From positions 448,001 to 512,000 of the forward strand of contig CAVSGM010000003.1 of NCBI GenBank assembly GCA_963727485.1: a stretch of 64,000 nucleotides of DNA, given 5' to 3'. Positions 28,301-51,090 of this stretch are shown here, one piece after another. This stretch comes from an uncultured delta proteobacterium (GTDB lineage Bacteria > Myxococcota > Myxococcia > SLRQ01). A program made the position numbers and the translations under genes. Position 1 is the stretch's first letter, and each line of letters begins with the position of its first letter. The notes beneath the pieces are model-generated. The model ran no database searches and had not been told where the DNA came from. It worked only from the letters and a program-made list of their open reading frames with translations.

Positions 28301-31300
28301 TCCGCGACCGATTCTCGAGCTCGTACTCCTCGATGGTACCGGGACGGTCCTGTGGCGGCATTCGCTCACGATGGCCAACGCCGCCGCGCTGGATGCCAAG
28401 CGCCTTCCTGGGATTGCCGACGTGAACGGTGATGGAACGCCAGACGTCGTGATCTTCACTTCCGGAACAATCGTGGCGCTGGATGGTGCGACGGGCAATG
28501 AGCTCTGGAGCCGCAAGGCTGCCTTGCCCGGACTCGCCGTCGAGCCCAGCGGCCAGATGAGCATCGCAGACCTGAACGACAGCGGGAGGCCGGACTTCCT
28601 GGTCTCCACCGGCGGGCAGAACCTCGGTGTAGCGTCCCTGGCAGCCTATGGGAACGACGGGCGTCTGATGTGGTCCGGTACCTATCTCGGAGGACCGACC
28701 TCGGACGCGTTTGCCCTCCTGGACCTGGACCTGAATGGCGGGCCCGACGTTCTGGCCTCGGTCTACGATGGCTGGCTGGCTGCGTACACAGGCACGGACG
28801 GGCAGTCGCTCTGGCGACAGAAGTACCCTGCGACCGGTGCGGGAGTCGCTGCAGGCGACCTGCGCCAGGATGGTCTCACCTATCCGGTGGTGTCCACGCT
28901 GGCCAGGCCCGAGACTGCAGCCTTCCGGCCTGACTCTGGCTACCTGTGGCTAACGCAGCTGTCTTCGAGGGTCATCTCATTCAACGGTCAGCAATCGTCG
29001 CTGGCGGATCTCCTCGGGCTGGGCAGGCCCCAGGTCATCGCCGAATCTCTAGGCAGGACTTTCAATCTCCTCGACGGCCGCAATGGAAGGGTCCTGATCT
29101 CGACTGGCGACGTACGTGACGGCAACTACCATATTCCTCCAGTCATCGCCGACGTCGATGGTAACGGCCACGGCGACATCCTCGAGGCAGACGGAACCGT
29201 TGGCTCCTGGACGGGCTTCGACCCCTCAAACGACAACCGGTTCAGTCCTGCGGCGGTGGACGTCTTCTCCAGCGTTCACTGGAAGAAGATGCCAACCGTG
29301 TGGAACCGCGCCTTCTACGTGAAAGGCGAGGTCGACGAGCACCTGCACTTCCTCGGGGACTACCAGCCGTGGAAGACGCACAACACGTGGTTGGACCAGT
29401 TCTCGGGGAGCTCGCCGGCGAAGCTGCTGGCCGACCTGACGGTCGGGACCAAGGACATCGTGCTGGCGCCGGTGCAGCCGGCGGCGGGCGACACGGCGCA
29501 GGTGCAGGTGACGGTGCACAACGTGGGCGGGCTGCCGGCGTCCAACGTGGGCGTCGAGGTCTGGGACGGGGATCCCAAGGACGGCGGTCGCAAGATCGGG
29601 ACGGCAACGGCCGCGGGGCCGCTCCCGGTGCGGGGCGGCTCGGCGACGGTGTCGGTGCCCTGGACCGCGTACCCCGAGGGCGAGCATCACCTCTACGCGG
29701 TGGTCAACCCGGCGCACACCATCGAGGAGTCGGGGTACGAGAACAACGAGGCCCACGGGATCGAGCTGGTGGCGCCGGGGACGAACCTGGCGGACCTGGC
29801 GGTGACGGGGGCGGAAATGGCGGTGTCGCCGCCGGCGCCGGTGGCGGGGAACGCGACGACGATCTCCACCGCGGTGAGCAACAAGGGGGTCCGGGTGTCG
29901 GGGCCGTTCACGGTGGCGTGGTACGACGGGGTGCCGCGGCCGGGGCTGGCGCCCTTGGCGATGGCGCCGGCGCCGAGTCTCGCGGCGGGGAGCGCCGAGG
30001 TGGTGACGGCGCCGGTGGTGCTGGGGCCAGGGGGGCACGAGCTCTACGTGGTCGCCGACCCGGAGCAGGTGACGCCGGACGCCGACCGGTCGAACAACGT
30101 GGCGTGGCTGCCGGTGACGGTGCAGGTGCCGGCGGAGCCGGAGCTGACGGTGGCGGTGACCGCGGCACCGGCGACGGTGGTCGAGGGTCGGACCGCGACC
30201 CTCACGGCCACCGTGGCCAACCTGGGGCAGGCGGTCGCGAGCCCGGTGGTGCGCTTCTACCTCGGGGACCCCAAGGCCGGGGGCCAGGCGCTCGGCGACG
30301 TGCGGATCCGGGGGCTGGTGGGCACGGGGCAGACGGCGACGGCCACGGCGACGCTCGATACCCATGGCCTCGCCGGGTCACGGGCGGTGTACGCGGTGGT
30401 GGACCCGGACAACGTGATTGCCGAGTCCCGCGAGGACGACAACACCGCGACCACCACGGTGACGGTCACGGCGCCGCCGGTGACGCTCACGGTGGCTGCG
30501 GACCGCGCGACCTACGGCGCGAACACGGCGGCGACGCTCTCCGCCACGGTGGCCGAGCACACCGGGACGGCCCGGGACGTGAAGGTCGACGTGCGGATCG
30601 AGCGGCCCGACGGCAGCCTGGTGGCGGTTCCGGGGCAGGGCCTGGACGCGGTGGTGGCGGCGAACGGGACCTGGCCGGTGACGGCGACGTGGGGCACGGG
30701 GACCACGCCGGCGGGGGACTACGTGGTGCACGCGGTGGCGAGCGACGCCACCGGGGTGCTGGCCGAGGCGCGCACGGGCCTGACCATCCTCCCCGACGGG
30801 GGCCTCTTCGCGAGGGTGACGCTGGACAAGACGAGCTACCTGCCCGGGGACACGGCGCTGGTGACGACGCTCTTGCGCGACGACGGGGTGAACGCACCGG
30901 TGGGGCCGTTCACCTCGGTGGTGACGATCACCGGCGGCGGGGTGCGGTGGCAGGCAACCCGCCAGGTGCCGTCGCTCTCGCCGGGCGAGGACCGGACGGC
31001 GCTGGACGCGTACCCGGTGAGCCCGGACCTGGCGCCGGGGACCTATCAGGTGAGCCTGGCGGTCATGGACAGCGCCGGCGCGCCGGTGACCACCGAGGCC
31101 ACGCAGCTGGTGGTCGAGGCCACGACGCCGGCGACGGGGCTGTCGGCGAGCGTGGTGGCGACGCCGTCGCAGCCGGCGCCGGGCATGACGGTGGACGTGG
31201 CGGTGACCTTCACCAACCATGGCAACACCCAGGTCACGGGCGCGCCGGTGACCCTCGCGATCCGGGACGCGCAGACCCTGGCGGTGATCGCGACGGTGAC

Positions 31301-33974
31301 CGGGACGGTAACGGTGGCGCCGCGGCTCATGGCGGTGGTGAGCCTGCCCTGGCGGGTAACCGGGGTGACGCCGCCGGCGGACGTGCTGGCCACCGTGGAG
31401 GTCGGCGGCTCGATCCTGGCGAAGACGGTGATCCACGTGATCCACCAGGTGGACACCACGCCGCCGGTGGTGACGGTCACCGGGGTCTCGGACGGCGAGG
31501 TCACCTCGAAGGACGTGACGCCGGGGATCACGGCCACGGATGCGAGCCCGTTCACCATGGCGGTGAGCCTCGACGGCCTCGCCTACACCCAGGGGACGGC
31601 CATCAAGACCGAGGGCGACCACCTGCTCGCCATCGTGGCCACCGACATCTACGGCAACCGGACGAAGCTGAACCTCGCGTTTTCCATCGACCACACGCCG
31701 CCCAAGGTGTCGCTCACGGGCGTCGCCGAGGGTGAGGTGACGAACTCACCGCAGGTGACGGTCACCGCGGACGCGAGCGACGTGCACCTGGCCTCGGCAC
31801 TGCTCAAGGTCGACGGCACCATCGCCGACTCGGTCACGGGCCTCGCGGGCAAGCCGTATCACCACGACCTGGCCCTCGCCGCCGAGGGGGACTACACGGT
31901 GTACCTCTCGGCTCGGGACGAGGCGCAGCTCGGGGCCGAGGTCACCCGGCACTTCGCCATCGACCGGACGCCGCCGGCGGTGTCGCTGACGGGGATCGCC
32001 GACGGCAAGGTGGTCAACGCGGCGTCGGTGACGGTGCATGCGACCGCGAGCGACCTCCACTTCGCGAGCGCGACCCTCGAGCTCGACGGCGCGGTCGCGG
32101 CCACGGGGACGGCGCCGGGCCCGTTTGCCCACGACGTCACCGAGACGGCGGAAGGGGACTACACGGTGGACCTCTCGGCGGCGGACGCGGCGGGGAACAC
32201 GGCGTCGGCGCATCTCGGGTACGCCATCGACCGGACGCCGCCGACGATCACCATCACCGGGATCCCGGCGCGGTACACGCCGCTGGACGTGACGCCGGAG
32301 GTGAAGGTCAGCGACGCGCACCTCGATCCCAAGAGCGTGGTCATCACGATGAACGGGGCGCCGTTCACCCCGGGGACCCTGCTGCACGATGAGGGCGACT
32401 ACCACCTGGCGGTCCAGGCGGCCGACCTCGCGGGGAACACGGCGACGGCGACGGCGGACTTCACCATCGACCGGACGCCGCCTTCAATCACCACCACCGG
32501 GGTCACCGAGGGCGAGCTGTCGATGAACGTGGTCACGCCGCAGGTCACGGTGACCGATCGGAACCTCGACCCGGCGGCGGTGTCGGTGACCCTGAACGGC
32601 GTGGCCTACGTGAGCGGGACGCCCATCGGGGCGGACGGGGTGTACGCGCTGGCGGTGCACGCGGCGGACCTCGCGGGGAACACGTCCCGCGCCGAGGTCC
32701 ACTTCGAGGTCTTCCAGGTCCACGTGACGCTCACCAGCGGGCCGCGGGTGGGCAACGCGCTCATCCTCAGCTCCTGTGGCCAGTGCTCGTGCCCGGCGCC
32801 GGCGGTGCTGGCCGGGGCCCTGAAGGACGCGGGGCTGCCCGGCACGGTGGTGGCCTCGGAGGGCCAGTGGCAGGGCGCGGTGCGCACGGGGCTCTATGAC
32901 GTGCTGGTGCTCTACCGCAGCGACGCCGGCGAGGACGACCTCGACGACGAGGTGGTGGAGCTGGTGCGCCAGGGCGTGGGCCTGGTGGTGGTCAGCGGGG
33001 ACCACGCCTGCGACGACGAGTCGCACCTCGCCGAGGCGCTGGGGTCGCGGACCCGGGGGAAGGTCCAGGGCGCCACGACGCTGGCGATCACCAAGAGCAA
33101 CCTGGGCCCGGCCGAGACCCTGGCCTTTGCGGGCGACGCCACGGCCCAGAAGCTCGACGGGGCCACGGCCGTGGGCACGGCGGGGGGCGAGGTGGTGCTC
33201 TCCACGAACACCCTGGGCGCGGGCAAGGTCGCCTATCTCACCTTCGACCCGGAGGCGGCGCCGTCGCCCGACGCGATGTCGGCGCTCCTGGGGCGGGTGC
33301 TCACCTGGGTCCGCCCGGGGAAGCTCCTCGACCGGGTGCCGGATCAGGGCGTGGTCCTGGACCACACGGTGGACAACACGGGCCCGGCCCGCGACTACAC
33401 CCTGACCCAGGGAATCCCCACGGGGACGGTGGTGCTCTCGGCGCCGAAGTCCTCGGCGCTGACCCCGGCGGTCACCTGGCCGCTCTCGCTGAAGCAGGGC
33501 GAGACGGCGCTGCGCTTCAGCGCCATGCGCCTCCCGGACGCGGCAGGCACCTCGGCATTCCCCACGGACCTCGACGTGGTCCACCCGGTGCGCGGGCCGC
33601 TGCCGGTGGGGCACTCGTTGACCAAGGTCACGGTGCCCGTGGACCTGGCGACGCTGACCCAGGCGGCCAAGGACGCGGTGGCGGCGCTGCCGGGGCAGTG
33701 CCACGACCACGACGCCGAGGCGGCGGAGCTGCTGGCGCACCTGGCGTCGTCGCCGTCGACGCGCGAGGAGGCGGCGGAGACCCTGGAGAAGCTGGTCCAC
33801 GCCGCCGAGGCGCTGGGCAAGCTGGGGGCGCAGGGCGCGGCGGCCCGGGACGCGGTGGACCGGCTCATCCGGGCCTGGGAGGCGCAGTGGAGCGCGCTCC
33901 CGCCGGACAAGGACGATCACGGTAAGGACGACGACGCGGCCTGCGAGACCAAGGGCGGAGAGGCACACGAATGA
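25356..33974 (+). CDS. Giant secreted protein (~2,870 aa when joined): prenyltransferase-like alpha/alpha repeats, multiple CARDB domains, FG-GAP propeller, Ig-like repeats (frameshifts near 26010 and 28310)
   Basis: Signal peptide ending ASA; GLDWLLAQQGPDGSFG and AQRNDGSWGG; repeated VVDPxxxxxExxxxNN; ADLTGDG, ADVNGDG, ADVDGNG; repeated IDRTPP and DLAGN units. Confidence 0.75.
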
Positions 33975-36900
33975 GTCGGCGAGACCTCGGGGACGGCCAG
34001 TGGAGCTTCGGCGGTGGGTACCGGGCGCGGCCCGAGGATGCGCTGCCGCCGCGGTACGGGTGGAAGCTGCGGCTGGTCAGCGCGCTGGTGCTGGTGCCCT
34101 CGGTGGCGCTCTTCGGCGGCGGGCCGGCGTACGCGCGGGAGGCGGTGCGGCGGAGGGCGTCGTGACCCGGGCCGACGCCATCGCGTCGCGCGGGCACTTC
34201 GACCGGAAGATCGATCCTGGACCCCAAGGGGTGGCGAGCGGACCGGGCGGCGAAGGCCGAGGCAAAGCGGAAGGCCGAGGTGGCCGACATGCGCAAGCGC
34301 CTGGGGCCCGACCCCAAGAAGCTGGCGGCGCTCCACGCGGAGGTGAAGGCGATCCGGGCGGCGGCGCCGGACCCGGCGCCGGCGGCGTTGGCCCGAGGGC
34401 TCGACGCGGTGGCGCGGATGGCGGCCCGGGGAAAGCGGCCCCCGGCGTCGATGGTGAAGGCGCTGGCGATGGTGGCCAAGGAGGCCCGGCAGACGGCGGG
34501 GCGGCACAGTGCGGTGCTGCGCGCGCACGTGGACCGGGCGGTGCGGAGCATCCGGGGCCTGCGGCGGCTCCACGGCCTGTCGCTCAAGCGTGCCGGGCAC
34601 GCGGATCGAGGCGACGACGCCGCGGGTGAAGCCGTCGACGGGGCCCAAGAGTCCCACCTTCCACCCCATCAAGCTGAAGCGCCCGCGGACGCTCCCCAAG
34701 CACGCGGCGCTCTCGCCGTCGCTGGAGGACCTCTACGCCCGGTCGTCGGGCGCCTGGGTCGAGGGGGCCTGGGGCACCATCCCGGCGACCGAGCTGGCGG
34801 CGGTGGGGAGCACGGACGAGCTGTGGCTCCAGAGCAACCCCAAGGGGGTCGAGCTGGCCATGGCCGGCGGGCCGCTCCCGGTGCTCTCGGGCCTGCCCAC
34901 CTTCGCCCTGGCGGCGCCCACGGCGGCGGACACCCAGCCGTCGGTGGCGGCTCAGGTCACGCCGGAGATCCAGGCGCTCGCCGACAGGCTGGGCCACGAC
35001 CCGCTCACCCTCTACAACTACGTCCACGACCACATCCGCACCACGCTGTACTACGGCTCGGCCAAGGGCGCGGACGGGACGCTCCAGGAGATGGCGGGGA
35101 ACGACGCGGACCAGGCGTCGCTGTTGGTGGCGCTCCTGCGCGCCAGCGGGGTCCCGGCGCGCTACGAGTACGCCAACGTCACCCTCACCGGTGAGCAGGT
35201 CCGCTCGATGCTCGGCTTCGAGACGGCGCAGGCAGCGGTGGATGCCCTGGCGTACGTGGGCTACCGGGTGAAGTACGAGGTGAAGCCGGTGGCCACCACG
35301 CTCCCGGACGGCACCCAGGTGACCCAGGAGCAGGTGGCCCTGGTGCACATGGAGCGGGTCTTCGTGCGCGCCTACGTGCCCTACGGGGACTACCGGGGCA
35401 CGGGGCCGGGTACCGGTCGGCACATCTGGGTACGACTGGATCCCGCGGTGAAGCGGACGGTGTCCCATCGCACCGCGAACCTCCGCGGACTCCACGACCT
35501 CGACCAGCAGGCCTACCTCTCGAAGCTGGAGACCGAGGAGCCGGAGCAGGTGTGGGAGGACGGGCTCCTGGCGGCGGCCAAGCAGAAGAACGTGTGCACC
35601 ACGCTGGCCAGCGGCCTGTGGGCGCCGACACCGGTGAAGGAGCACTTCCAGCTCCTGCCCGCCGAGCACCCGGGGCACGTGGACTCGACGCTGATGGTCT
35701 TCGACGCCATGCCCCAGTCGCTGCAGCAGCGGGTGACGGTGACGGTGCCGGGGGGGACGCGGACGGTGCCCGCGGTGGACCTCTACGGCCAGGCGCTGCA
35801 CCTGACGTTCCCGGGCGCCACGGCTGCGGACCGGACGGCCATCGGCGACGACATCACCAAGGTGAAGCCGTACCTGGTGCAGGTGAAGCCCACGGTGACC
35901 GTCGGCGGCACGACGTGGCTGACGGGCGACGCGACGACGCCGGGGACGGCCATGGACCTGGGCGTGACCCTGCGGCTCCCCGCGGGCGTCCTGGTACCGG
36001 TGCACCACCACCTCACGGCGGGTGGCGTCTTCGTGGTCCGGCTGTCCACGGGGACGATGCCCCTGGGCCGGGTGGCCGGCGCCGACAAGGCCCTCGAGAA
36101 GCTCGGCACCGCGGCTGGGCGGGACGCGAAGGACCTGGGCCGCCTGGATGCCGTGGTGACGCGCTACATCCACAACGTGGAGACGAGCGCCGAGCACGCC
36201 TACGGCCTGGAGCGGTACGCCACGGTCAAGGACATGGTGGAGGCGATGGGCGGCCGGCCGGTGCAGGCGCAGTACCTCTACGGCCTGCCGGTGAGCCTGA
36301 CGCGAGGGGCCTACACCCTGGACGTGGCGCGGGAGTCCTCGTCGCCGCTCGCCGTGGACGGCGACGCCTCCCAGCGGGTGAAGCTGGGCGAGCTCATCGG
36401 GCTCGAGGGCAGCGATCTGGAGCACCGGTCGATGGAGGAGGTCCTGGACGGTACGGCGGTCAGCGCGGTCCGGACCATCGAGCTGGCGTACAGCCAGGGT
36501 ATCCCAGTCGAGACCATCACCAGCGCCGATGCGGCGAACATCGGAAGCCTGGTGGGGTACGACGACGGGACGCTGGCGGAGATGCGGAACGGGGTCGCGG
36601 CCGGCGAGACGCTGACGGCACCGGCGCGCACGGTGGACTACGGGGGGTTCACGGGGATCGAGGGGTACACGCTGGTGGACCCGCAGACGGGTGACGGGCT
36701 GTACCGGCTGGGGGCGAGCCTGAATGGGGCCAAGAGCAAGCCGGGCGCCCGGCAAGGAACCGGCGGGGCCTGCCAGTGCGGTGGGGGCGCCCCCGACGTG
36801 CCCGGGCCCAGCACGGGGCGCTTGAGCAACGGCGACATGACCGAGGCGCGCACGGACCTGCAGCTCCCGGCCGTCGGCATCCCCATCGTGCTCTCGCGCA

Positions 36901-39900
36901 CCTACCGGAGCGGCTCACCCACAGGCACCGCCATGGGCACCAAGTGGGGCTTCAGCTACGGGATGCGGATCGAGGCCAGCCCCGATGGGTCGCTGACGTA
37001 CTACACGGGCTCCCTGCAGGCGCTGCCGTTCACCAAGGCGGGCACCGGGAGCTGGAGCCCGCCGCCGGGGTGGCACCAGACCATCACGACGACGGCGAGC
37101 GGTGGGTACGCCATGCGGTTCAAGCATGGCAACGTCTTCACCTTTGACGACACTGGGCGGCTGGTCTCGGAGGCGGACGCCAACGGGAACACGGTCACCC
37201 TCCAGTACGATGCCACCGGCCAGCTGCACACGGTCACCGACGCGACAGGCCGCGTGGTGCTCACCTTCGGCTTCGACCAGGCTGGTCTCATCGCCTCGGT
37301 GACCGACGTCGCGGGCCGTACCGTCACCTTCGGGCACACCGGAACCGACCTCACCTCGGCGACTGACGTCCTGGGTCACACCGAGACCTACGGCTACGAC
37401 ACCCGGCACCTGATGACGAGCCATACCAGCAAGCTGGGGGCGACGGTCGCCGAGCTCTACGACGCGGACGGCTGGTGGAACGGCTGGGTGGATGCGCTCG
37501 GGGACCGGGGCCAGGTGATCTACGACGTGCCGGCGCACCAGGCGGTGAGCATCGACCCCCTGGGCAACGAGACGGTCTACCAGTGGAACGACCTGGGGAG
37601 CACCGTGAAGGTCATCGCCGCCGACGGAGAGGTGACCACCAACACCTGGGACGCCGACCGGAACAAGCTCTCGACCACGGACAGCCGGGGCAACACCACG
37701 GCGTACACCTACGACACCAAGGGCAACATGCTCACCCGGACCGACGCGCTGGGCGAGAAGACGCGCTACACTTACGACCCGATCTTCAGCCAGCTGAAGA
37801 CCCGGCGGAGCCCCGACGGGTCCTACGAGCTGAACCAGTACGACACCGCGGGGAATCTCATCTCCTCGAGGGACCCCCAGGGCAACACCACGACCTACAC
37901 CTACGACGGTACGGGGCAGCTCGAGACCGTGACCCAGCCGGGCGGGGCGATCACGACGCTGGGGTACAACGGCACTGGCAACGTCACCACGATGACCGAC
38001 GCCACCGGGGCGACCACGACGCTGGGCTACGACGGCGCCGGGCACATGACCAAGATGACCGACGCCAACGGCCACGCGCGGACCATGGCCGTCGACGCCG
38101 CGGGGCGCATCACCTCGATGACCGACGCCCTGGGCCACACCTCGAGCTTCACCTACGACGCCGCGGGGAACCGGCTGACCTCGACCGACGCGACGGGTGC
38201 CACCTCGAGCTACACCTACGACGTGCTGGGGCGAGAGATCGCCACCAAGGACGCCTTGGGCCACACGACCCACACGGAGTACGATGCAGACGGCCGGGTG
38301 GAGGCGACGGTGGACGCGCGGGGCGCCCGGACGGAGAGGACCTACGACGCCGTGGGACGTCTCATCGCGACGAAGATGGCCGACGGGGGCACCACCGGCT
38401 ACGCCTACTGCGCGGACGAGCCGGGCTCGGCGCCGTGCGAGGTCGTGGACCCCATGGGCCGGGTCACCACCATGAAGCACGACGCCCTGGGTCGCCAGAG
38501 CTCGGTCACCGACGCCCTGGGTGACACGACCACCACCGCCTACGACAAGATGGGCCGGCGCTCGGCGGTCACCGACCCCAACGGGCACACCTCCAGGTAC
38601 ACCTACGACTACGACGGCCGGCTCCGCCAGGTGATGAGCCCGCTGTCGAGCTTCACCGCCCAGGTCACGTACGCCTACGACGCCCGCGGCAACCGCACCA
38701 AGGTCACCGACGGCCTCGGCCACGCGACGACGTTCACCTACGACATGGCGAACCACCTGCTCACCGAGACCACGCCCATCGGGACCACGACCAGCTACAC
38801 CTACGACCCCACGGGCAACCGGGCGACCCGGACCGACGCCTCGAGCCGGACGACGACCTACACCTACGACCCGAACCACGAGCTGCTGGAGAAGCACTTC
38901 GCCGACGGGGTGGTGCATCGGTTCCAGTACGACAGCCGGGGCAACCGGACCTACGAGGCGGACCCGGCGGTGGCGAGGACGCGGGTCTACGACGCGATCA
39001 GCCGGCTGGCATCGGTGACCGACCACGCGCTGAACAAGACCATCGACTACCGCTACGACGCCAACGGGAACCGGACGAGGCTGACCTGGGACGGGAAGGA
39101 GATCCGGTACCAGTACGACCAGCTGAACCGGCTGGTGGAGGTGGTGGACCCCGAGGGCGGCATCGCGCGGCTGACCTACGACCGGTCGGGGAAGCGGACG
39201 AGCCTCACGTACGCCAACGGGATCCTGGCGAGCTACCGGTACGACGGGGCGGGGCGGCTCACGGACATCGTGTACACGAGGCCCGACGGGATGGTGGTGG
39301 AGAGCTTCCACTACGACCTGGACCGGGCGGGGAACCGGCTGACCAAGGGCTTCGCGGACGGGACGCGGGAGGTGTACACGTACGACGCGGCGAACCGGCT
39401 GACCGGGGTGACCTACGGCGACGGGCGGCACGTGGCGTACAGCCTGGACCTGGTGGGCAACCGGCAGGCGCTGCGGGAGACCAACCCGGACGGCTCGGTG
39501 GCCCGGGACGAGACCTACCGGTACAACGCGTTCAACCAGCTGACGACGCGGACGATCTCGACCGGGTACCCGAACCGCACGGTGGAGACCTACGGGTACG
39601 ACCCCCAGGGGGCGATGACGAGCAAGGTGGCGCAAATCACGACCAGCGCCGGTACCACAACCGAGACGACTAGCTACACCTACAACACGAATCATCGACT
39701 AGCTGACGTCAGCCTGCCAACTGGAGCGAATGAGACATACGCATACGACCCGGACGGGCTTCGTGTGGAAAGCGTTGTCGCGGGTAACACAAGGCTAGAC
39801 TTGGCTACCGGAGCAAGCCCTCTCGCCGTCTTCGACGCCAGAGGGCGGCTTGTTCGCACATACACTACAAGTCCGATCAAAGTCGATAGCCTCTACTCGA

Positions 39901-40706
39901 TGTCGGACTCGTCCGGCACCGCATATCCGGTCGTTGATGCGCTCGGTTCGGCTTACAGATTTCTTGGGCCGGACGGGCGAACCATAGCCAAGGTTGCCTA
40001 CAGAGCCTTCGGCGGCTTGGCGACGACGGCAGTCCCCGCGAGAGGCGTCCCAGCATACGTCGGCCGCCCGTACGCTGCGCAGTCGACATTGGTGTACATG
40101 CGAAAGAGGTATCTTCGCACGGCGACCGGACGATGGAATAGGCCTGACCCAGCAAGGCGTGTTGGGCTGCCAAATAGGCTTGGGTCGGCCTGGAATGTGT
40201 ACGCATATGTCCTTGAGCGGCCGACTGGCCTCGTTGATCCGTTTGGCCTGAGGGCGGACCTGTCAGGCGCGGACTGGGCGGACAGACCAATCCAGCGAGC
40301 AAGGGTGCTTCATTTGTATGCGTTGCTAGATGGGATCCCTGCAGTTCATGCGTGGTTCGCGAAATGGGGACGTCCAGATCCCTTCATGAGCGTTCAGAAG
40401 TTCAATACGCAGGATATGCTAACATTTCAGACCATAATGTTCTATCTATCCAGCAAGGACTTCAGAAATGGCGACATGCTGGCAAACACAAATCCCTTCA
40501 CGGGCGAGATAACCATTACGGATGCTGGTCTTGCTCTCGGGGACCGCCGCCTTGCGGACAACATCATGCATGAGCTCAACAATTGGTCCTTTGTTGTGGA
40601 GTTCAGGTGGCCACACGACGCCACAGATTCAGGCGATGACAACTCGTACAACGCAGAGAACCCTGTGGATGAGTTCTTCTTCCATGGAGGAGGTGTCTGC
40701 CAGTGA
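33971..40706 (+). CDS. rhs: Rhs polymorphic toxin: signal-like N-terminus, transglutaminase-like domain, DUF6531-like region, YD repeats, Rhs core and CT (frameshifts near 34150, 34220 and 34590)
   Basis: ATGA overlap with the upstream gene; GNDADQASLLVALLRASGVPARY; TDLQLPAVGIPIVLSRTY...GTKWGFSY; many YD repeats; GRWNRPDP...YAYVLERPTGLVDPFGL. Confidence 0.88.
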
Positions 40707-41044
40707 GGAGCCCCCACGGTCTGCTGCCATCGCGGCGGTCGCCTTCGTTTGGAGCACGGGTTGCTGCTTTGTCGAGCGTGGCGTTTTCGGGCTGGTCAAT
40801 ATGGTGCAGTCGCCTGGTCACGTCCATTCATGCTGCAGAGAGTAGAATCTGGCACACGTGTCCGTCGGCCCTGAGGGGAGCTCCTGCTGGCGGTGTATTC
40901 TCCACAGTGGAGGCACTTAGGTTTCTGTCTCTCTTTGGCCTCGCCTTTGCGGGGATGGCTCTCACTGGCCGCCCACGGTGGATCGGGGCGACCGCCCTGC
41001 TGTTTGCGGTGGCGTCGGTTCTTGCGTCCTTCGTCATCCAGTGA
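40703..41044 (+). CDS. Putative membrane immunity protein for the main Rhs CT
   Basis: GTGA overlap with the toxin stop; small, about 3 hydrophobic segments, lower GC. Confidence 0.65.
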   Translation: MRSPHGLLPSRRSPSFGARVAALSSVAFSGWSIWCSRLVTSIHAAESRIWHTCPSALRGAPAGGVFSTVEALRFLSLFGLAFAGMALTGRPRWIGATALLFAVASVLASFVIQ

Positions 41045-41179
41045 GCGGTGCTCCCACGTCTCACGGTGGGTTCGCATCCAGCGGTATGTGGACGAGCAGA
41101 TGCACCTTGGCGGGATAGGGAAGGTGTTCGATCGTTCCTCGCCCGGCGAGGCGGCGCCATAGCAGACATGGCGCATTGG

Positions 41180-43678
41180 CACGGAGTACGATGGGGACGG
41201 CCGGGTGGCGGCGACGGTGGACGCGCGGGGCGCCCGGACGGAGAGGACCTACGACGCCGTGGGACGTCTCATCGCGACGAAGATGGCCGACGGGGGCACC
41301 ACCGGGTACGCGTACTGCGCCGACGAGCCGGGCTCGGCGCCGTGCGAGGTCGTGGACCCCATGGGCCGGGTCACCAAGATGACCTACGACGCCCTGGGCC
41401 GCCAGAGCTCGGTCACCGACGCCCTGGGCGACACGAGCACCACCACCTACGACAACATGGGCCGGCGCTCCGCGGTCACCGGCCCCAACGGCCACACCAC
41501 CCGGTACACCTACGACCACGACGGCCGGCTGCACCAGGTGATGAGCCCGCTGTCGAGCTTCACCGCCCAGGTCACCTACGGCTACGACGCCCGCGGCAAC
41601 CGCACCAAGGTCACCGACGGCCTCGGCCACGCGACGACGTTCACCTACGACCTGGCGAACCACCTGCTGACCGAGACCACGCCCATCGGGACCACGACGA
41701 GCTACACCTACGACCCCACGGGCAACCGGGCGACCCGGACCGACGCCTCGAGCCGGACGACGACCTACACCTACGACCCGAACCACGAGCTCCTGGAGAA
41801 GCACTTCGCCGACGGGGTGGTGCACCGGTTCCAGTACGACAGCCGGGGCAACCGGACCTACGAGGAGGACCCGGCGGTGGCGAGGACGCGGGTCTACGAC
41901 GCCATCAGCCGGCTGAAGTCGGTGACCGACCACGCGCTGAACAAGACCATCGACTACCGCTACGACGCCAACGGGAACCGGACGAGACTGACCTGGGACG
42001 GGAAGGTGATCCGGTACCAGTACGACCAGATGAACCGGCTGGTGGAGGTGGTGGACCCGGAGGGCGGCATCGCGCGGCTGACCTACGACCGGTCGGGGAA
42101 GCGGACGAGCCTCACCTACGCGAACGGGATCGTGGCGAGCTACCGGTACGACGGGGCGGGGCGGCTCACGGACATCGTGTACACGAAGCCCGACGGGATG
42201 GTGGTGGAGAGCTTCCACTACGACCTGGACCGAGCGGGGAACCGGCTGACCAAGGGCTTCGCGGACGGGACGCGGGAGGTGTACACGTACGACGCGGCGA
42301 ACCGGCTGACCGGGGTGACCTACGGGGACGGGCGGCACGTGGACTACAGCCTGGACCTGGTGGGCAACCGGCAGGCGCTACGGGAGACCAACCCGGACGG
42401 CTCGGTGGCCCGGGACGAGACCTACCGGTACAACGCGTTCAACCAGCTGACGACGCGGACGATCTCGACCGGGTACCCGAACCGGACGGTCGAGACGTAC
42501 AGGTACGATCCGCAGGGCGCGATGACCAGCAAGGTGGCCCAGGTCACCACCAGCGCGGGCGCCACGGCAGAGACGACGACGTACACGTACAATACGAGTG
42601 AGCGGCTCGCGGCCGTCAATCTGCCTAGCGGAACAACTGACGCCTACGAGTATGACCCCGACGGGCTTCGCGTCGAGGAGTCAAAGGGGGCTCGTGTCAC
42701 AAGATACCTGCTGGACCGGTGGTCTGCGCTTGCGCTGTACTCAGCAGACGGTACTCCCGATGGACAGCAGATTGAGAATCCTACGGTTCCAGATGAACGC
42801 TTCAAGATCAGCGACGCCGGAGGAGGGGCCTATCCCTTGGTCGACGCGCTTGGGAGTCTGTATGGGTTGACCACGGCGACACGAACGGTTGAGCAACAGT
42901 TCAGCTACGATGTCTACGGGAGACAGACCCCGAACCTCCCAAACGCTCATTTGGCATTTGGCTTCCAGGGAAGACCAACGACTTCTGGTGCTCTCGCCTA
43001 CTTTAGAGACCGGTACCTCCAAGTGGATACGGCCATGTGGAATCGGCCAGACCGAACGCTCTGGGGTAGGGCTATGGGATCTCTAGTTGGAGAGTTGTAT
43101 CCGCATGAATTCACGATTCTGGATCTTGTCCACATGTCTGGAGCTGATCGTTATGGGGTCATGAGACATAATCCAGTTGCGATTTTGGATCCCTCAGGGA
43201 CTTGCCTGTCCTGAAATTCGGCCCTGACGCGATCGACCACGTGGTGGCCTCGCTGGGTCTGAACTTCGCTCTGTTTGGTCTAATCCAGGGCTTGGCTACT
43301 TCTCTAGGGGGAGGTGGCTGGGCGTTCGCGCAGACCGTCGGAGCGAAGACAGCGGCGATTGTCGCCTCTACAGCCCTCTTTACGGCCATTGCGGGGGTCC
43401 TTGTTGAGCACTTCCCGGGGAACACCTTCGACTGGGCGGACATTGCGTCGGATATGGTTGGAGTCGTGGTGGGGACCGTGCTGCTGGCTTTCCTTGCACT
43501 CATCACGCCCGTGGCATCTGTCCAGGTAGCGGCCATCCTTATGGCTCTTGGAGACTTTGGAGTCGGCTTGGCCCTCTGGATGCGACACAGACGGGTGGAG
43601 CTTCATGAGCACGGGCATGTTCTTCTTAGGGTTGATTTCAGCAAGGTCCTGTCCTGCGGGCAGGGGTTGGGCGAGTGA
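41180..43678 (+). pseudogene. Orphan rhs cassette 1 with a hydrophobic CT (frameshift near 43200, just after DPSG)
   Basis: Near-identical to the main gene from 38273 onward; HNPVAILDPSG; CT continues in ORF 43202..43678. Confidence 0.8.
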
Positions 43679-43725
43679 GGTTACCGGTGTCCCGTGATTA
43701 GAAGTTCCAGACAGTCGTCATTGCT

Positions 43726-43992
43726 TTGTCCGCGGCTGCATGGATGTGGGTCATTGCCCTTTTCCATGTGGCAAGCACTGTTTGGCGAGTTGGCTTGGCC
43801 GCATATCTTTTTGGCGACGTCCTTGTGCTTGCTCTGGCACTCGGCAGGGAGTGGCCTGATGGCCCGCCGGGCGAAGAAGCCAAGCCCCCTCGCCTTCTAA
43901 CTCTCCTGTCCCTTGTGGGCTTTGCTCTGGCCGCGGTCATCGTCCTGGGGCTTGTGGTCCAGTGGCATATGCCTGGACTCCTGTCCGGCTAG
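43726..43992 (+). CDS. Putative membrane immunity protein for the orphan 1 CT (true start may be near 43694)
   Basis: About 3 TM segments; directly after the CT. Confidence 0.6.
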   Translation: MSAAAWMWVIALFHVASTVWRVGLAAYLFGDVLVLALALGREWPDGPPGEEAKPPRLLTLLSLVGFALAAVIVLGLVVQWHMPGLLSG

Positions 43993-44049
43993 CGCCGGGA
44001 GTTGCCTGGCACTCTGGGTGCGACGTGGATCCTGGGCCCGTTCCGCCTT

Positions 44050-46582
44050 GGTGGACGCCCTTGGGGACCGGGCCACGGCAAGCTACGACGTGCTGGGCCG
44101 GCAGATGTCCACCAAGGACGCCTTGGGCCACACGACCCACACGGAGTACGATGCAGACGGCCGGGTGGAGGCGACGGTGGACGCGCGGGGCGCCCGGACG
44201 GAGAGGACCTACGACGCCGTGGGACGTCTCATCGCGACGAAGATGGCCGACGGGGGTACCACCGGGTACGCGTACTGCGCGGACGAGCCGGGGTCGGCGC
44301 CGTGCGAGGTGGTGGACCCCATGGGCCGGGTCACCACCATGAAGCACGATGCCCTGGGCCGCCAGAGCTCGGTCACCGACGCCCTGGGCGACACGAGCAC
44401 CACCACCTACGACAAGATGGGCCGGCGGTCCTCGGTCACCGACCCCAACGGCCACACGACGAAGTACAGCTACGACCACGACGGCCGGCTGTTCAACGTG
44501 ATGAGCCCGCTGTCGGCCTACAACGCCTCGGTGACCTACGCCTACGACGCCCGGGGCAACCGGACCAAGGTCACCGACGCCCTCGGTCACGCGACAACCT
44601 TCGCCTACGACCTGGCGAACCACCTGCTGACCGAGACCACGCCCATCGGGACCACGACCAGCTACACCTACGACCCCACGGGCAACCGGGCGACGCGGAC
44701 CGACGCCTCGAGCCGGACGACGACCTACACCTACGACCCGAACCACGAGCTGCTGGAGAAGCACTTCGCCGACGGGGTGGTGCACACGTTCAAGTACGAC
44801 AGCCGGGGCAACCGGACCTACGAGGAGGACCCGGCGGTGGCGAGGACGCGGGTCTACGACGCGATCAGCCGGCTGAAGTCGGTGACCGACCACGCGCTGA
44901 ACAAGACCATCGACTACCGCTACGACGCCAACGGGAACCGGACGAGGCTGACCTGGGACGGGAAGGTGATCCGGTACCAGTACGACCAGATGAACCGGCT
45001 GGTGGAGGTGGTGGACCCGGAGGGCGGGATCGCGCGGCTGACCTACGACCGGTCGGGGAAGCGGACGAGCCTCACCTACGCGAACGGGATCCTGGCGAGC
45101 TACCGGTATGACGGGGCGGGGCGGCTCACGGACATCGTGTACACCAAGCCCGACGGGACGGTGGTGGAGAGCTTCCACTACGACCTGGACCGAGCGGGGA
45201 ACCGGCTGACCAAGGGCTTCGCGGACGGGACGCGGGAGGTGTACACGTACGACGCGGCGAACCGGCTGACCGGGGTGACCTACGGCGACGGGCGGCACGT
45301 GAGCTACAACCTGGACCTGGTGGGCAACCGGCAGGCGCTCCGGGAGACCAACCCGAACGGCTCGGTGGCCCGGGACGAGACCTACCGGTACAACGCGTTC
45401 AACCAGCTGACGACGCGGACGATCTCGACCGGGTACCCGAACCGCACGGTGGAGACCTACGGGTACGACCCCCAGGGGGCGATGACGAGCAAGGTGGCGC
45501 AGGTCACGACCAGCGCCGGTACCACAACCGAGACGACGACCTACAGCTACAACAGCAACGAGCGAATGACGGCCGTCGTTCTGCCAGATGGAGCAACAAA
45601 CTCCTTCGCTTACGACGCCGCCGGGCGCAGGGTGTACCGCCAGACAACATCGGTCCGTACCAGTTATCTGGAAAGTGACGGGAAGGTTCTGGCTGCCTAC
45701 GGCTCCGGCTCGGCTTCTTCGGAGGTGCTCGTTTGGGATCCGGACCGTAGGGCCGGCCTTGTAGAAGTGGCAGACCCCTCCGGTGTGGTCACCCCCCTGG
45801 CCGACGCGCTGGGCAGCCCGTATCGGTACCTGACTTCAGACCGGGACTACTCCGCATCCTACACTGCCTATGGGGCCTCCAATGTGCTTGCCGACCCTGC
45901 GTACCTCGATTGGTCGTTCGCGGGCCTGCAACTCGATAGACAGGCCCACCTTCTGTACGGGCACAACCGGTACCTGATCTCGGGGATTGGTCGATGGAAC
46001 AGGCTCGATCCGGATGGTCATGGCTACCTGTACGTTCGCGACAATCCGGTGATGTGGATCGACCCAGAGGGTCTCTACCGAGTAGGTAATGATGTTGCTC
46101 CGATTGGCATCGACGCGATGACGATTGAAAGCGCCTATTATAGCATTCTTCTCAACCTGGCATCAGGCAAGCCTTGTTCGACGTGCGAGGCATACTTCAG
46201 CGAGCTCGGGATGGAGTTCAAGCCACAGCAGGAGAAGGTGTGGGGCTTCGTGACGATGTATCAACAGCTCGATATCGTTGCGATCAATGTGGCCACCCTT
46301 GAGACGAAGCAGCCGGAAATTGCATTGAGGCTCAGAAGCGGAGACCTCAACGACCTGAACAATGGTTACTCGGTGCCGGGAAAGCCAGCGATGTGGCTGC
46401 TGAAGGAGACTCTCACGTACGCTCCCATGTGTTCTATCGAACACACGATTGTCCACGAACTGGCGCACACCATGGGTCTTCGGGATGAGGCTCGCGCCTA
46501 TCTTGAGGTCCCGGGTGCTTGTGGATTCTTCAAGCCAGACTGCTACTACGTTCCCCTTGGCATTGGGCCGTGGCATGAGTAG
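44050..46582 (+). pseudogene. Orphan rhs cassette 2 with an HExxH metallopeptidase-like CT
   Basis: Core copy; DNPVMWIDPEGL; TIVHELAHTMGLRDEARAY. Confidence 0.82.
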
Positions 46583-47027
46583 GCGCGTCTTCGTCTTGGC
46601 GATCCTTGGGGTCCTATCTTGCAGAGCGAGGGGTGCGCCAGGGGAGGTGTCCTCCGGTGACGCCTCACAACACCAGGCGGCCATGGCATGCTCTAAGGTG
46701 ACGCTGCATCCCCTAGAACAGTACTGGGCCGACGCCTATGGGAAGCCTGGTCACGTAGTAGAACAACCATGGACAGCGATCCCGGCCTTTTCCGGGTCGC
46801 GCCCGTTGGGCTTCAAGGTCGTGCGGCTTCGCCAAGGGTGGTCTCACCGTTTGAAGATACGCCCGGGAGATATCATTGTGAGCGTAGCCGGAAGACCGAC
46901 AGTCAACCCGGATCAGATGCTGGCCGTCATGGACAAGATCAAGGCAAGCCATCCAGCGACGGTGAGGGTCTACATGTTGCGCGGTGGTCACCGGGTATGC
47001 AGCGACTACCAGTTGGTATGGCGCTAG
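46575..47027 (+). CDS. PDZ-domain lipoprotein, putative immunity protein of orphan 2
   Basis: MSRRVFVLAILGVLSC lipobox; GFKVV...IRPGDIIVSVAG...RGG PDZ pattern; overlaps the CT stop. Confidence 0.7.
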   Translation: MSRRVFVLAILGVLSCRARGAPGEVSSGDASQHQAAMACSKVTLHPLEQYWADAYGKPGHVVEQPWTAIPAFSGSRPLGFKVVRLRQGWSHRLKIRPGDIIVSVAGRPTVNPDQMLAVMDKIKASHPATVRVYMLRGGHRVCSDYQLVWR

Positions 47028-47037
47028 AGCCAACGGT

Positions 47038-49600
47038 CGCCTTGGGCCACACGACCCACACGGAGTACGATGGGGACGGCCGGGTGGCGGCGACGGTGGA
47101 CGCGCGGGGCGCCCGGACGGAGAGGACCTACGACGCCGTGGGACGTCTCATCGCGACGAAGATGGCCGACGGGGGCACCACCGGCTACGCGTACTGCGCC
47201 GACGAGCCGGGGTCGGCGCCGTGCGAGGTCGTGGACCCCATGGGCCGGGTGACCACCATGAAGCACGACGCCCTGGGCCGCCAGAGCTCGGTCACCGACG
47301 CGCTGGGCGACACGACCACCACCGCCTACGACAACATGGGCCGGCGCTCGGCGGTCACAGACCCCAACGGCCACACCACCAGGTACACCTACGACTACGA
47401 CGGCCGACTCCGTCAGGTGATGGGCCCGCTGTCGGCCTACAACGCCGAGGTGGCTTACCGGTACGACGCCCGCGGCAACCGCACCAAGGTCACCGACGGC
47501 CTCGGCCACGCGACGACGTTCACCTACGACCTGGCGAACCACCTGCTCTCCGAGACCACGCCCATCGGGACCACCACCAGCTACACCTACGACCCCACGG
47601 GCAACCGGGCGACGAGGACCGACGCCTCGAGCCGGACGACGACCTACACCTACGACCCGAACCACGAGCTCCTGGAGAAGCACTTCGCCGACGGGGTGGT
47701 GCACCGGTTCCAGTACGACAGCCGGGGCAACCGGACCTACGAGGAGGACCCGGCGGTGGCGAGGATGCGGGTCTACGACGCCATCAGCCGGCTGAAGTCG
47801 GTGACCGACCACGCGCTGAACAAGACCATCGACTACCGCTACGACGCCAACGGGAACCGGACGAGGCTGACCTGGGACGGGAAGGTGATCCGGTACCACT
47901 ACGACCAGATGAACCGGCTGGTGGAGGTGGTGGACCCGGAGGGCGGGATCGCGCGGCTGGCCTACGACCGGTCGGGGAAGCGGACGAGCCTCACGTACGC
48001 CAACGGGATCCTGGCGAGCTACCGGTACGACGGGGCCGGGCGGCTCACGGACATCGTGTACACCAAGCCCGACGGGACGGTGGTGGAGAGCTTCCACTAC
48101 GACCTGGACCGCGCAGGGAACCGGCTGACGAAGGGCTTCGCGGACGGGACGCGGGAGGTGTACACCTACGACGCGGCGAACCGGCTGACCGGGGTGACCT
48201 ACGGCGACGGGCGGCACGTGGACTACGGCCTGGACCTGGTGGGCAACCGGCAGGCGCTGCGGGAGACCAACCCGGACGGCAGCGTGGCCCGGGACGAGAC
48301 CTACCGGTACAACGCGTTCAGCCAGCTGACGACGCGGACGATCGCGGCGTACGGCGCCGCTGGCACGACGCGGACAACCGAGACCTACGGGTATGACCCG
48401 CAGGGGGCGATGACGAGCAAGGTGGCGCAGGTGACCACCAGCGCGGGCAGCACGACCGAGACTACGATCTACGCCTACAACACAGATGACCGTCTGATCC
48501 AGGCGACCCTGCCCAGTGGAACCAAGGAGGAGTATTCCTACGGGCCGAATGGACTTCGTGTCACTTGGAAAAGCCCCCAGGGTTTGCGCCAATACGTAAT
48601 GGATAGGTCGACGGTCCTCGAAGCGGTGGGCGACTCTGCCATGGGATCCTATGTTCTCACAGAGAATCCAGAACGTTCGGATGAGACGCTCACAGCGCTA
48701 GTAGTTGCCGCGGATCGCCCGGCAACACGCCGGCCGGTCTATCCAGTCACCGACGCCCTTGGTAGCTGGTACGGAGTCACGGACAGCTCCGGCGCACCTG
48801 AGCTTGGCGCCTCGTATGACGCCTACGGTCGCCCCACTCCGATGTCGAGCCCCGGCTTGCCTGTGGCCTTTCAAGGGCGCACTATCGATGAAAGTGGCCT
48901 CCTCTATGCGCGGTCGCGGTACCTTGACCCAGTGCTAGGTTTGTGGCTGCGGCCAGATCCCCTTTCGGAGTCCAGGCTGCGCGGCGACCCGGAATACGCA
49001 TTCTCTGACTTGGGTGCGCGGACGAATCCAGAGTCGCCGCCGCGTGCCGCTAGTCAAACCTATGTATTTGCGCATCGGAGTCCGACCATGTGGGTCGACC
49101 CCACCGGGCTGCGGGCGGACCTGTCAAGTTCAGAATGGCTCAGATGGCCAATTACAAAGGTGAGGGTGTTGTATCTGTATCGAATGCTCGCGTCAGACTC
49201 ACGCGCCCATGCATGGTTTGCCAAGTGGGGACGGCCAGATCCGTTCTTCAACGTTGAGACGTTCTACATGGAATTCCATCATTACTTGATGTCTGCTTTC
49301 ATTGGTGTTCAGGAGTTGATCGACGGAATGGGAAACGTGCTCTCTGACACTGGGACTTGGACGCATGACATTTACATTACAGAGGCTGGAGCAGAGCTGC
49401 CTGACGCCAATCTAATGGCCCAGGTGATAATGCATGAGCTGAACAACTGGTCATTCCTTGCGGAGTATGAACTCCCGCATGACAACAGCTTGCCGGATGG
49501 ATCCTACACGGCTGAGAATACAGCATATGATATATACTATGACGTCATGTCGGATCACAGCGCTGCCTGCGGTGACAGACCGATCCATGCCCCTGAGTGA
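47038..49600 (+). pseudogene. Orphan rhs cassette 3 with an HELNN-type CT, paralogous to the main CT
   Basis: Core copy; SPTMWVDPTGL; shares HAWFAKWGRPDPF and IMHELNNWSF with the main CT. Confidence 0.85.
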
Positions 49601-49659
49601 AGTGCTTGGTGTGTCTGTCCAGGGGCGTTGCTTGAAGGCGGTCGCTGGGAGTGCTTGAT

Positions 49660-49971
49660 ATGAAAGAACGAATTGGGGGTGTTTACGTCTACCTCGCCGC
49701 GTGTGCCGGCAGCTTTGGCCTGTCCCTGACTTCCCTGATTGTTTCGGGCGTGGCTGCAAGGCTCAATGGCGCCATGCGCGGGCTTCCACGCGGACTCGTG
49801 ATCAGCTCTGGGCTGGCCCAGGCGGCAGCGCCCCTGGACTGGTTCCGTCTACTTGCTCCCGTTGCGCTCCTGCTGGCGTTGCCTTGCGCGGTGAGGCCGA
49901 TGCGGGTGCTTGGGGTCATTGCCTTGGCTACTGCGGTAATCGCAGTCGGCTGTGCCGGGCTGTTCCCCTGA
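49660..49971 (+). CDS. Putative membrane immunity protein for orphan 3, distantly similar to 40703..41044
   Basis: About 3 TM segments; AMRGLPRGLVIS versus ALRGAPAGGVFS. Confidence 0.65.
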   Translation: MKERIGGVYVYLAACAGSFGLSLTSLIVSGVAARLNGAMRGLPRGLVISSGLAQAAAPLDWFRLLAPVALLLALPCAVRPMRVLGVIALATAVIAVGCAGLFP

Positions 49972-50071
49972 GTGCACGCAGAATGCAGCACCTATTGCGA
50001 GGTACACCTAGGAGCCGCTTCACTGGACAGAAGCCTGCTGGGCACCTCGGGTCCAAGGCCAAACGGAACGA

Positions 50072-50854
50072 ACGGAGTACGATGCAGACGGCCGGGTGGA
50101 GGCGACGGTGGACGCACGGGGCGCCCGGACGGAGAGGACCTACGACGCCGTGGGACGTCTCATCGCGACGAAGATGGCCGACGGGGGCACCACCGGGTAC
50201 GCCTACTGCGCGGACGAGCCGGGCTCGGCGCCGTGTGAGGTGGTGGCGGATCACATGGGCCCGCGGTCCTCGGTCACCGACCCCAAGGGCCACACCACCA
50301 GTAACACCTACGACTACGACGGCCGGCTCCGCCAGGTGATGGGCCCGCTGTCGGTCTACAACGCCGAGGTGGCCTACCGGTACGACGCCCGCGGCAACCG
50401 CACCAAGGTCACCGACGGCAATGGCCACGCGACGACGTTCACCTACGACCTGGCGAACCACCTCCTGTCCGAGACCACGCCCATCGGGACCACGACCAGC
50501 TACACCTACGACCCCACGGGCAACCGGGCGACCCGGACCGACGCCTCGAGCCGGACGACGACCTACACCTACGACCCGAACCACGAGCTGCTGGAGAAGC
50601 ACTTCGCCGACGGGGTGGTGCCTCTGTGCGAGGAGGACCCGGCGGTGGCGAGAACGCGGGTCTACGACGCGACCAGCCGGCTGAACTCGGTGACCGACCA
50701 CGCGCTGAACAAGACCATCGACTGCCGCTACGACGCCAACGGCAACCGGACGAGGCTGACCTGGGACGGAAAGATGTTTCGGTACCGGTACGACCAGCGG
50801 CTGCTCAGACTGTCGCTTGGCGTCTGTGGAAACGACGTGGATGCACTGACATGA
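50072..50854 (+). pseudogene. Degenerate orphan rhs fragment 4: internal deletions, Rhs core and CT lost
   Basis: Starts at the same ACGGAGTACGA junction; deletions after PCEVV and DGVV; homology ends near 50795. Confidence 0.8.
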
Positions 50855-51069
50855 ACCGGACGCCGACGCCTGCGGACTTGGACGTCGATGGGCTCCCGGG
50901 GTGGACCTTTGACCTGGACGAGATATCAGCCGGCGGCTTCCGCATCCGCGCGGAGGATGCGGCAGGGCGTACGGTGGAGCTGACGGGTACCGATCCGGGC
51001 GCCCTCGTCGAAGACTGCAAGGCCGCAGTGAAGGGTCTGCTGGGACCCCCGCCGGGTGTCGAGGACTGA
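50851..51069 (+). CDS. Small acidic protein, candidate orphan immunity protein
   Basis: ATGA overlap with the fragment 4 stop; 72 aa, LPGWTFDLDEISAGGFRIRAED. Confidence 0.55.
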   Translation: MNRTPTPADLDVDGLPGWTFDLDEISAGGFRIRAEDAAGRTVELTGTDPGALVEDCKAAVKGLLGPPPGVED

Positions 51070-51090
51070 CCGCGTTTGGGGATCGTCTAC

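Follow-up and report, generated by a model that had tools for sequence, protein, structure and literature searches.

Introduction

The described systems closest to the toxin domains reported here are the M35 aspzincins (PF14521), the zincin tips of polymorphic toxins and a class of exported Rhs proteins. In the M35 enzyme GfMEP, the metal ligands are given as His117, His121 and Asp130, with a spacing of 8 between His121 and Asp130, and Asp154 bonds His117 as a second-shell residue (PMC3268031). Tox-MPTase1-5 and other polymorphic-toxin zincin tips are all listed with HExxH or HEELH, and Rhs proteins with an inactive transglutaminase domain are described as Sec-exported (PMC3482391). The zincin toxins M91 and VgrG2b are described as acting in the periplasm and as having envelope immunity proteins (PMC13556075, PMC6899460, PMC10673891), and the M35 effector T6EC12, which combines HExxH with a downstream Asp and Glu, has the closest tested site layout (bioRxiv 10.64898/2026.09.28.754971). 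Here, we analyze an Rhs locus in a 64,000-nucleotide stretch of DNA from an uncultured delta proteobacterium of the Myxococcota (contig CAVSGM010000003.1, positions 448,001 to 512,000; the window), in which two C-terminal toxin domains, or tips, carry HELNN, i.e., Asn in place of the second His of HExxH. We conclude that these domains represent a variant, HExxN+Asp, within an aspzincin-like lineage of toxins. Judged from sequences and predicted structures, the proposal that they are active metallopeptidases with His/Asn/Asp ligands is evenly balanced.

Two diverged HELNN tips in one Rhs locus

The main tip (40248..40706; all features described here are on the + strand) comprises 152 amino acids after a DPFG motif at the end of the main Rhs toxin gene and was classed as an HExxN aspzincin-like domain by translation, structural modelling and fold search. 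Numbered from the Leu after DPFG, its HELNN motif (40569..40583) contributes His108, Glu109, Asn111 and Asn112 on a predicted helix of residues 99-119. The invariant Asp124 (40617..40619), by sequence a likely third metal ligand, follows, and S-Y-x-A-E (40644..40658; Tyr134 and Glu137) starts the last predicted helix. The second tip (49109..49600; HELNN 49433-49447, Asp 49481-49483, SYTAE 49502-49516) belongs to orphan 3 (47030..49600), a cassette that consists of an Rhs core copy (93% DNA identity) and this HExxN domain.

An earlier note on this DNA, made from the sequence alone, took the two tips for paralogs, and BLASTP bears this out (67/150 residues identical, 45%; E 6e-41). The shared blocks that it listed are all present, except that the first reads LRADLS-x3-W rather than x2. 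It also held Asn at the second-His position to be no error. One copy encodes this Asn by AAT and the other by AAC, and the codons around it also show synonymous differences, which excludes a shared base-call error; together with six members outside the window, these differences rule out sequencing error as the source of the Asn. Neither tip has a sequence match in Pfam, NCBIfam or the PDB, in line with the possible new family that the note proposed, and the same genome holds no third copy of the domain. The five letters HE[LM]NN alone are undiagnostic: a six-frame scan of the genome returned six occurrences, four of them as HE[LM]NNPL, which we take to be histidine-kinase H-boxes.

A family of eight sequences with a fixed Asn

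The HExxN family comprises at least eight distinct sequences, the two window tips and six outside members; the eight are mostly 23-42% identical, with the pair P0007/P0012 at 81%. In all eight, M-H-E-[LM]-N-N is followed by an Asp at a distance of 7-11 residues and by S-Y-x-A-E. The Asn that the earlier note had seen in two copies is thus fixed at the second-His position in 8/8 members, none of which has the two His ligands of HExxH.

Profile searches yielded the remote proteins P0006 (Rhs, E 5.6e-4) and P0007 (non-Rhs, E 6e-5), and a final protein search added P0012. A DNA pattern, M-H-E-hydrophobic-x-[N or H]...[S/T]-Y-x-A-E, retrieved at least 118 metagenome, 94 species-genome and 4 viral stretches. 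When 216 pattern loci were scored with the family profile, four stood at 60-87 bits (L067, L019, L010 and the duplicate L049) and the next at 17.6; no member was found among the 94 species-genome or the 4 viral-contig stretches. The three pattern-found members were chosen on M-H-E and Y-x-A-E, so those features were pre-selected; the pattern permitted His or Asn, yet all three have Asn. The count leaves out L049 and P0011 (both equal to L010) and P0005, P0009 and P0010 (orphan 3 copies from the same or a near-identical organism). P0008, from a search of representatives, lacks the motif and matched through low-complexity sequence; it was excluded. No members came from a near-length protein search and a related-locus search in three collections, from genome samples of two other phyla (0/301 and 0/201) or from five further entries (0/5).

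P0007 and P0012 are 301-amino-acid non-Rhs proteins with an unclassified N-terminal domain that ends LysM-like (by eye) and a Pro-rich linker. The HExxN domain therefore moves between delivery systems. The L067 member is followed (L067:1838-2215) by an Rhs fragment resembling the Rhs core of the window and then by an IS66-like element (by eye).

The tips are predicted to adopt a zincin fold

AlphaFold2 models of the tip reached a predicted template modelling score of 0.73 with 4 rows and of 0.81 with 11 rows, the latter with a predicted local distance difference test score (pLDDT) of 82. In the model, H-E-L-N-N lies on helix 99-119, i.e., the active-site helix with HExx of a zincin is present, and Glu137 stands at the start of the last helix. 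In a structural search of 48,161 chains with the second model, the top three matches were all M35 enzymes: deuterolysin (1eb6) at Z 9.8 with a root-mean-square deviation (rmsd) of 3.2 over 127 aligned residues, AsaP1 (2x3a) at Z 9.7 (rmsd 2.8, 120 aligned) and GfMEP (1g12) at Z 8.7 (rmsd 3.1, 120 aligned). In the search with the second model, M1 aminopeptidases (fourth and below), YbeY, Wss1 and mini-zincins follow, and nearly all 50 rows are zincin-fold proteins. With the first model, for which HExxN rows alone were used, deuterolysin and AsaP1 again took the first two places (Z 8.2 and 8.1), and the list was similar. The zincin fold that the earlier note suspected is thus predicted, with HExx on the helix and zincins as top matches up to Z 9.8.

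The same matches bear on two readings other than a peptidase. They include YbeY (Z 7.9) and alpha-ketoglutarate HExxH oxygenases (Z 5.9-6.1), and three site residues (Asn111, Asn112 and Tyr134) change together, as could fit an Fe-/Mn-dependent or metal-free hydrolase or transferase that acts on a non-peptide envelope substrate. In such an enzyme, the helix might work as in the His/acid/Asn motif of HisKA, and the HE[LM]NN string does recur in the four kinase-like H-boxes of the genome. This likeness, however, amounts to five letters on an unrelated fold, and the best structural and the sole sequence-level links are to peptidases; we regard other chemistry as unlikely. The second reading is a pseudopeptidase that would bind a target or chelate metal without catalysis, or serve as a decoy tip. 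TAF2, Pra1 and the lethal factor binding domain, zincin-fold proteins with non-enzyme roles, appear in the search, and one canonical ligand is gone in all members. Against a pseudopeptidase, 16 sequences with identities of about 20-40% (the eight members and the eight HExxH relatives described below) all retain the general-base Glu, the first His and the Asp, the substitute is always Asn, and a coupled downstream envelope gene is kept in 5/5 tips with known context, which makes a loss of catalysis quite improbable. In catalogued pseudopeptidases, substitutions are described as scattered and as often including the general base (PMC11266112), which never changes in the HExxN family.

Relationship to HExxH tips and M35 aspzincins

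A profile of HExxN sequences only matched HExxH Rhs tips in 3/400 other genomes of the phylum (E 2.5e-7 to 1.5e-5), and a wider profile found HExxH tips in 8/208 genomes of a family of the same class (f2); a class-wide search of 368 genomes, 9 of them matching, gave no relatives beyond those already known. The nearest relatives are eight unnamed Rhs tips (L220-L222, L226-L230) with canonical HExxH and (T)xD. All eight have HEL[SA]H, T-x-D at a His-to-Asp spacing of 7-8 and Cys at the Tyr134 position, and six are followed by hydrophobic open reading frames (ORFs; by eye). Identity between the two groups is 16-30%, their profiles match at 97.9% (E 4.9e-13), and they have in common L..V..WF...DPF, A.TN..T..T, the Asp and the Rhs context. 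Invariance across all 16 rows is limited to four positions: the first His, the Glu, the Asp and one Ala. Asn111, Asn112 and Tyr134 co-segregate against Ser/Ala, His and Cys (8 vs 8), which in the alignment reads as a remodelled and maintained site, though possibly as one evolutionary event.

The link to M35 aspzincins is one of fold and site layout. The HExxN tips have their best fold matches there over nearly the whole domain and, as in M35, their HExx helix precedes an Asp by about 8 residues. The alignment with M35 shows two more shared features, a conserved WF in the N-terminal half and an acidic residue where the last helix begins. They differ from M35 in having Asn for the second His, no GTxDxxYG (Thr and Tyr-Gly are unconserved, and TxD occurs only in the HExxH relatives) and S-Y-x-A-E instead of NADxHE; structural identity is 9-14%, and the tips are Rhs-carried, without a prodomain and without a Pfam match. 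Pfam Aspzincin_M35 is matched by 2/16 rows (best E 4.8e-5), with the best relative at 24.3 bits against a cut-off of 30; neither window tip matches PF14521, which has 0 matches in the genome. An Rhs protein from another family of the phylum (L243:1-1941) has a genuine M35 domain at its end (43.5 bits, above the cut-off), and M35 tips therefore do occur on Rhs carriers.

Among polymorphic-toxin families, a language-model search pointed to Tox-MPTase3 (PF15639) clusters (0.86 for the main tip, 0.93 for a homolog). None of the 16 rows matches Tox-MPTase3 in Pfam at E<=0.1, of the Tox-MPTase3 motifs (K, HExxH and F[DE]) HExxH is absent from the tips, and hhalign against a thin profile of two fetched Tox-MPTase3 members gave 0.3%. 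The HELNN tip would function like an M35-type antibacterial metallopeptidase tip while falling outside M35 (by profile, HExxH and GTxDxxYG) and outside Tox-MPTase3. Like Tox-MPTase1-5 it is a small zincin domain at an Rhs C-terminus, and it departs from them in its motif.

In a tree, the HExxN sequences fall on one side with weak support (54/31). With M35 outgroups included and the motif columns removed, an HExxN clade is neither supported nor rejected (approximately unbiased test, p-AU 0.44), and the HExxH relatives form a clade (97/95). The direction of change is therefore taken from HExxH being the general form. The HELAH tip of orphan 2 was considered as a canonical parent and rejected: it has no BLAST match, scores -0.2 bits with the HExxN profile and sits on a long branch. 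The new family that the earlier note envisaged stands as a variant branch and not as a separate family, since it lies within an M35-aspzincin-like Rhs toxin lineage. The HExxN tips are a rare, apparently undescribed variant branch with no new fold; in the literature (mostly non-subscription journals, main texts only), we found no HExxN or Asn-ligand zincin.

The proposed metal site and its possible activity

His108, Asn112 and Asp124 match the GfMEP ligands in order and spacing, and Glu109 aligns with the general base. The earlier note had offered the His of PHD or the Glu of AEN to complete the site. The PHD His was rejected as a ligand, with only 3/8 HExxN members and 0/8 HExxH relatives having a His before the Asp. 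The Asp of PHD, which the note passed over, is invariant (16/16) and by sequence (spacing 7-11) stands where M35 has its third ligand, an Asp about 8-10 residues after the second. Because the Asp is invariant and the His before it is not, Asp124 is the likely third ligand, with Glu137 or Tyr134 as the alternative. The AEN Glu (Glu137) is kept in 8/8 members at the start of the last helix; in gluzincins, a Glu on a downstream helix is the third ligand. In the alignment with M35, however, Glu137 falls on acidic residues of the NADSHE helix that do not bind the metal (two registers three residues apart are possible, and in M35 neither gives a direct ligand), which makes it a second-choice ligand.

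Glu137 is central to a further reading, an active metallopeptidase whose rewired site would use His108 and Asp124 together with either Glu137 or Tyr134, and in which Asn112 would sit in the second shell or position water. Helix position i+4 faces the metal in zincins, which counts against such a site. Glu137 and Tyr134 are invariant (8/8), and Tyr stands for the Cys of 8/8 HExxH relatives; three of the eight members, however, had been selected for S/T-Y-x-A-E. The spacing from Asn to Glu, about 18-26 residues, is gluzincin-like, M1 aminopeptidases appear from fourth place in the fold search, and T6EC12 is described as needing both its downstream Asp and Glu (bioRxiv 10.64898/2026.09.28.754971). 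In the HExxH relatives, in turn, an acidic residue corresponds to Glu137, and in M35 the aligned segment is the NADSHE helix, whose Asp is described as second-shell (Asp154-His117, PMC3268031). Altogether, we consider a rewired site rather unlikely.

We suggest that His108, Asn112 and Asp124 hold the metal and that Glu109 acts as general base. The Asn would bind the metal through its side-chain oxygen; such an oxygen-rich site may favor Mn or Fe rather than Zn and would be supported by Asn111, Tyr134 and Glu137, which are fixed along with Asn112. In favor of activity, the first His, the general-base Glu and the Asp are kept in 16/16 rows and the replacement is Asn in every member (8/8). A complex prediction for the L010 tip with its Sel1 neighbour and Zn scored 0.02, telling neither way.

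Several points weigh against an active His/Asn/Asp site. Asn is rare as a zinc ligand, and second-His mutants of zincins are usually inactive. The aspzincin Thr and Tyr of GTxDxxYG are not conserved in HExxN members. Compared with a profile of 24 fetched M35 members, the HExxH relatives reach a moderate 58.9% (E 9.4e-5), and a direct comparison of HExxN with the M35 profile is insignificant (1.9%, E 0.026). Foldseek returned no match at E<=0.001 for either model, though its lists are led by zincins, and the loop with Asp124 (residues 121-130) is weaker in the model, with a pLDDT of 65. Five of the eight members came from profiles built on HELNN rows, all eight may stem from one substitution event, and the frameshifts in the 5' part of the main Rhs gene may be genuine. 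In T6EC12, alanine changes in the HExxH centre are reported to cut toxicity (bioRxiv 10.64898/2026.09.28.754971). The wider proposal, a natural clade of active zincins with an Asn ligand ("asn-zincin", HExxN+Asp) whose His/Asn/Asp site, remodelled along with a second Asn and a Tyr, works on Mn/Fe or carries out a new envelope-attacking reaction, is a little less likely than not.

The Rhs carrier, putative immunity genes and target

Downstream of its main gene, the locus has four cassettes, each with a core that shares 87-95% identity with the main core. The main Rhs toxin gene (33971..40706; Pfam/NCBIfam matches and three-frame translation) has a long ORF at 34509-40706 and frameshifts in its 5' part. 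Within that part, the 5' end (33971-34165) encodes, by eye, a hydrophobic, signal-peptide-like segment ending in AxA. A transglutaminase-like domain (PF01841, E 1.3e-9), DUF6531, RHS repeats (PF05593 E 1.5e-117, plus TIGR03696) and the core are also encoded. The transglutaminase-like domain is inactive, with D and R at the catalytic Cys and His positions, judged by eye against what we take to be the transglutaminase motif. DPFG (main) and DPTG (orphan 3), directly before the tips, are both cleavage motifs of the DPxG Rhs type, and GC is 51-53% in the HELNN tips versus 69% in the Rhs core, as is usual for exchanged tips. RHS repeats and core, DPxG and a variable C-terminal domain mark the protein as an Rhs polymorphic toxin; a small coupled ORF after each tip and the orphan core-tip cassettes give the arrangement of immunity genes and orphan cassettes.

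The putative immunity gene of the main toxin (40703..41044) overlaps the toxin stop with its start and encodes 113 amino acids with two predicted membrane segments and no Pfam family at E<0.5; that of orphan 3 (49651..49971) encodes 106 amino acids with three. The two proteins are 29% alike (MAFFT), insignificant by BLAST (E 0.11). A small coupled downstream gene is present in 5/5 members with DNA context, with predicted membrane segments in 4/5: the partners of both window tips and of L067 have two or three, the L010 partner has an anchor and a Sel1 repeat (E 4.5e-7), and the L019 partner is lipoprotein-like by eye with a weak Sel1 match. The L010 and L019 partners (L010:2093-2440, L019:198-689) are related to each other (32% identical); both are Cys-rich, have Sel1 repeats and carry an anchor at the N-terminus. 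The other three are small multi-pass membrane proteins, and there are therefore at least two unrelated partner types.

The signal-peptide-like start, the transglutaminase domain with altered triad residues and the RHS repeats are those of a Sec-type Rhs protein, and the genome, which is 93% complete, yielded no T6SS (type VI secretion system) sheath gene. Compared with the inactive-transglutaminase Rhs toxins as described (PMC3482391), the locus has the same signal-like start, dead transglutaminase domain, RHS repeats, variable tip, orphan cassettes and Ig-type neighbour; the carrier is not different, and the tip family is what differs. VgrG2b/Tpe1 and the Salmonella Rhs-M91 protein SED_RS06335 likewise pair a zincin toxin with an adjacent envelope immunity gene. 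The tested effectors VgrG2b, M91 and T6EC12, in contrast, have canonical HExxH and T6SS delivery, and VgrG2b matches the fold at only Z 5.5. The start of the carrier, its dead transglutaminase domain and the membrane/Sel1 partners suggest Sec export and an envelope target; since the periplasm is where tested zincin toxins with partners of this kind act, we infer that the tips, too, act on the envelope. We suggest that the toxin is exported by the Sec route, that the tip is released at DPxG and cuts a target in the envelope of a rival cell, and that the downstream membrane proteins neutralize the tips. Recombination from one near-identical Rhs core to another could swap orphan 3 into the main gene.

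Upstream, a giant surface-protein gene (25356..33974; Pfam CARDB, FG-GAP_3 and the Ig-like Big_3, and ORFs) is spread over three reading frames, and its stop overlaps the Rhs start. Several frameshifts lie in long genes at 25356-34650 and 51432-52622 (surface protein, Rhs 5' part and a downstream repeat gene) and suggest indel errors in the assembly. The copy of orphan 3 in another assembly (P0005) differs in frame at its 3' end. Four low-depth soil-metagenome contig sets from one study, with no RNA set among those listed, contain pieces that match, but these lie outside the HELNN codons and the 5' frameshifts. Seven more Rhs core matches elsewhere in the genome (contigs C1, C2 and C4 of G000) have unrelated tips, none with HExxN (0/7).

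Other cassettes of the locus

Orphan 1 (41205..43678), an Rhs core copy with 94% DNA identity, shifts frame at its DPxG motif (within the region 43114-43992). Its hydrophobic tip (43202-43678, in another frame) has four predicted membrane segments and is pore-former-like, and a putative immunity gene with three predicted membrane segments follows (43726..43992). Orphan 2 (43913..46582) joins an Rhs core copy to a canonical HELAH zincin tip (motif 46454-46468; weak Peptidase_M57 and Zincin_1 matches), which is Cys-rich and shows no detectable relationship to the HELNN domains. Its putative immunity gene (46575..47027) has a lipoprotein-like start and a weak PDZ match (PDZ_6 E 1.6e-4, below the cut-off), an unusual immunity partner. 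Zincin-like tips thus make up three of the four in the locus. Orphan 4 (50057..50854) is a truncated Rhs core remnant without a recognisable tip. After it, small genes without Pfam matches (50866-53027) include similar membrane proteins at 51076-51396 and 52716-53027. A two-repeat gene among them (51432-52622) resembles, by eye, what we take to be Imm26-type immunity proteins, and the cluster is possibly an immunity island.

Implications

HExxH is the recognition rule for zincins, and a lost His is read as a dead enzyme. The Rhs carrier described here is itself ordinary. In its tips, Asn is fixed over sequences about 30% alike, with the base, the first His and a third ligand kept, which suggests a working exception. 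If so, the asn-zincin clade would break the HExxH rule for calling zincins active or dead, and the HExxN clade suggests that motif-based annotation would miss active toxins. With about 150 amino acids, a natural HExxH sister clade, two paralogs in one genome and their own partner genes, this small system is clean for questions about metal sites, and it opens the questions of how far a zincin site tolerates an oxygen ligand and which metal is then used.

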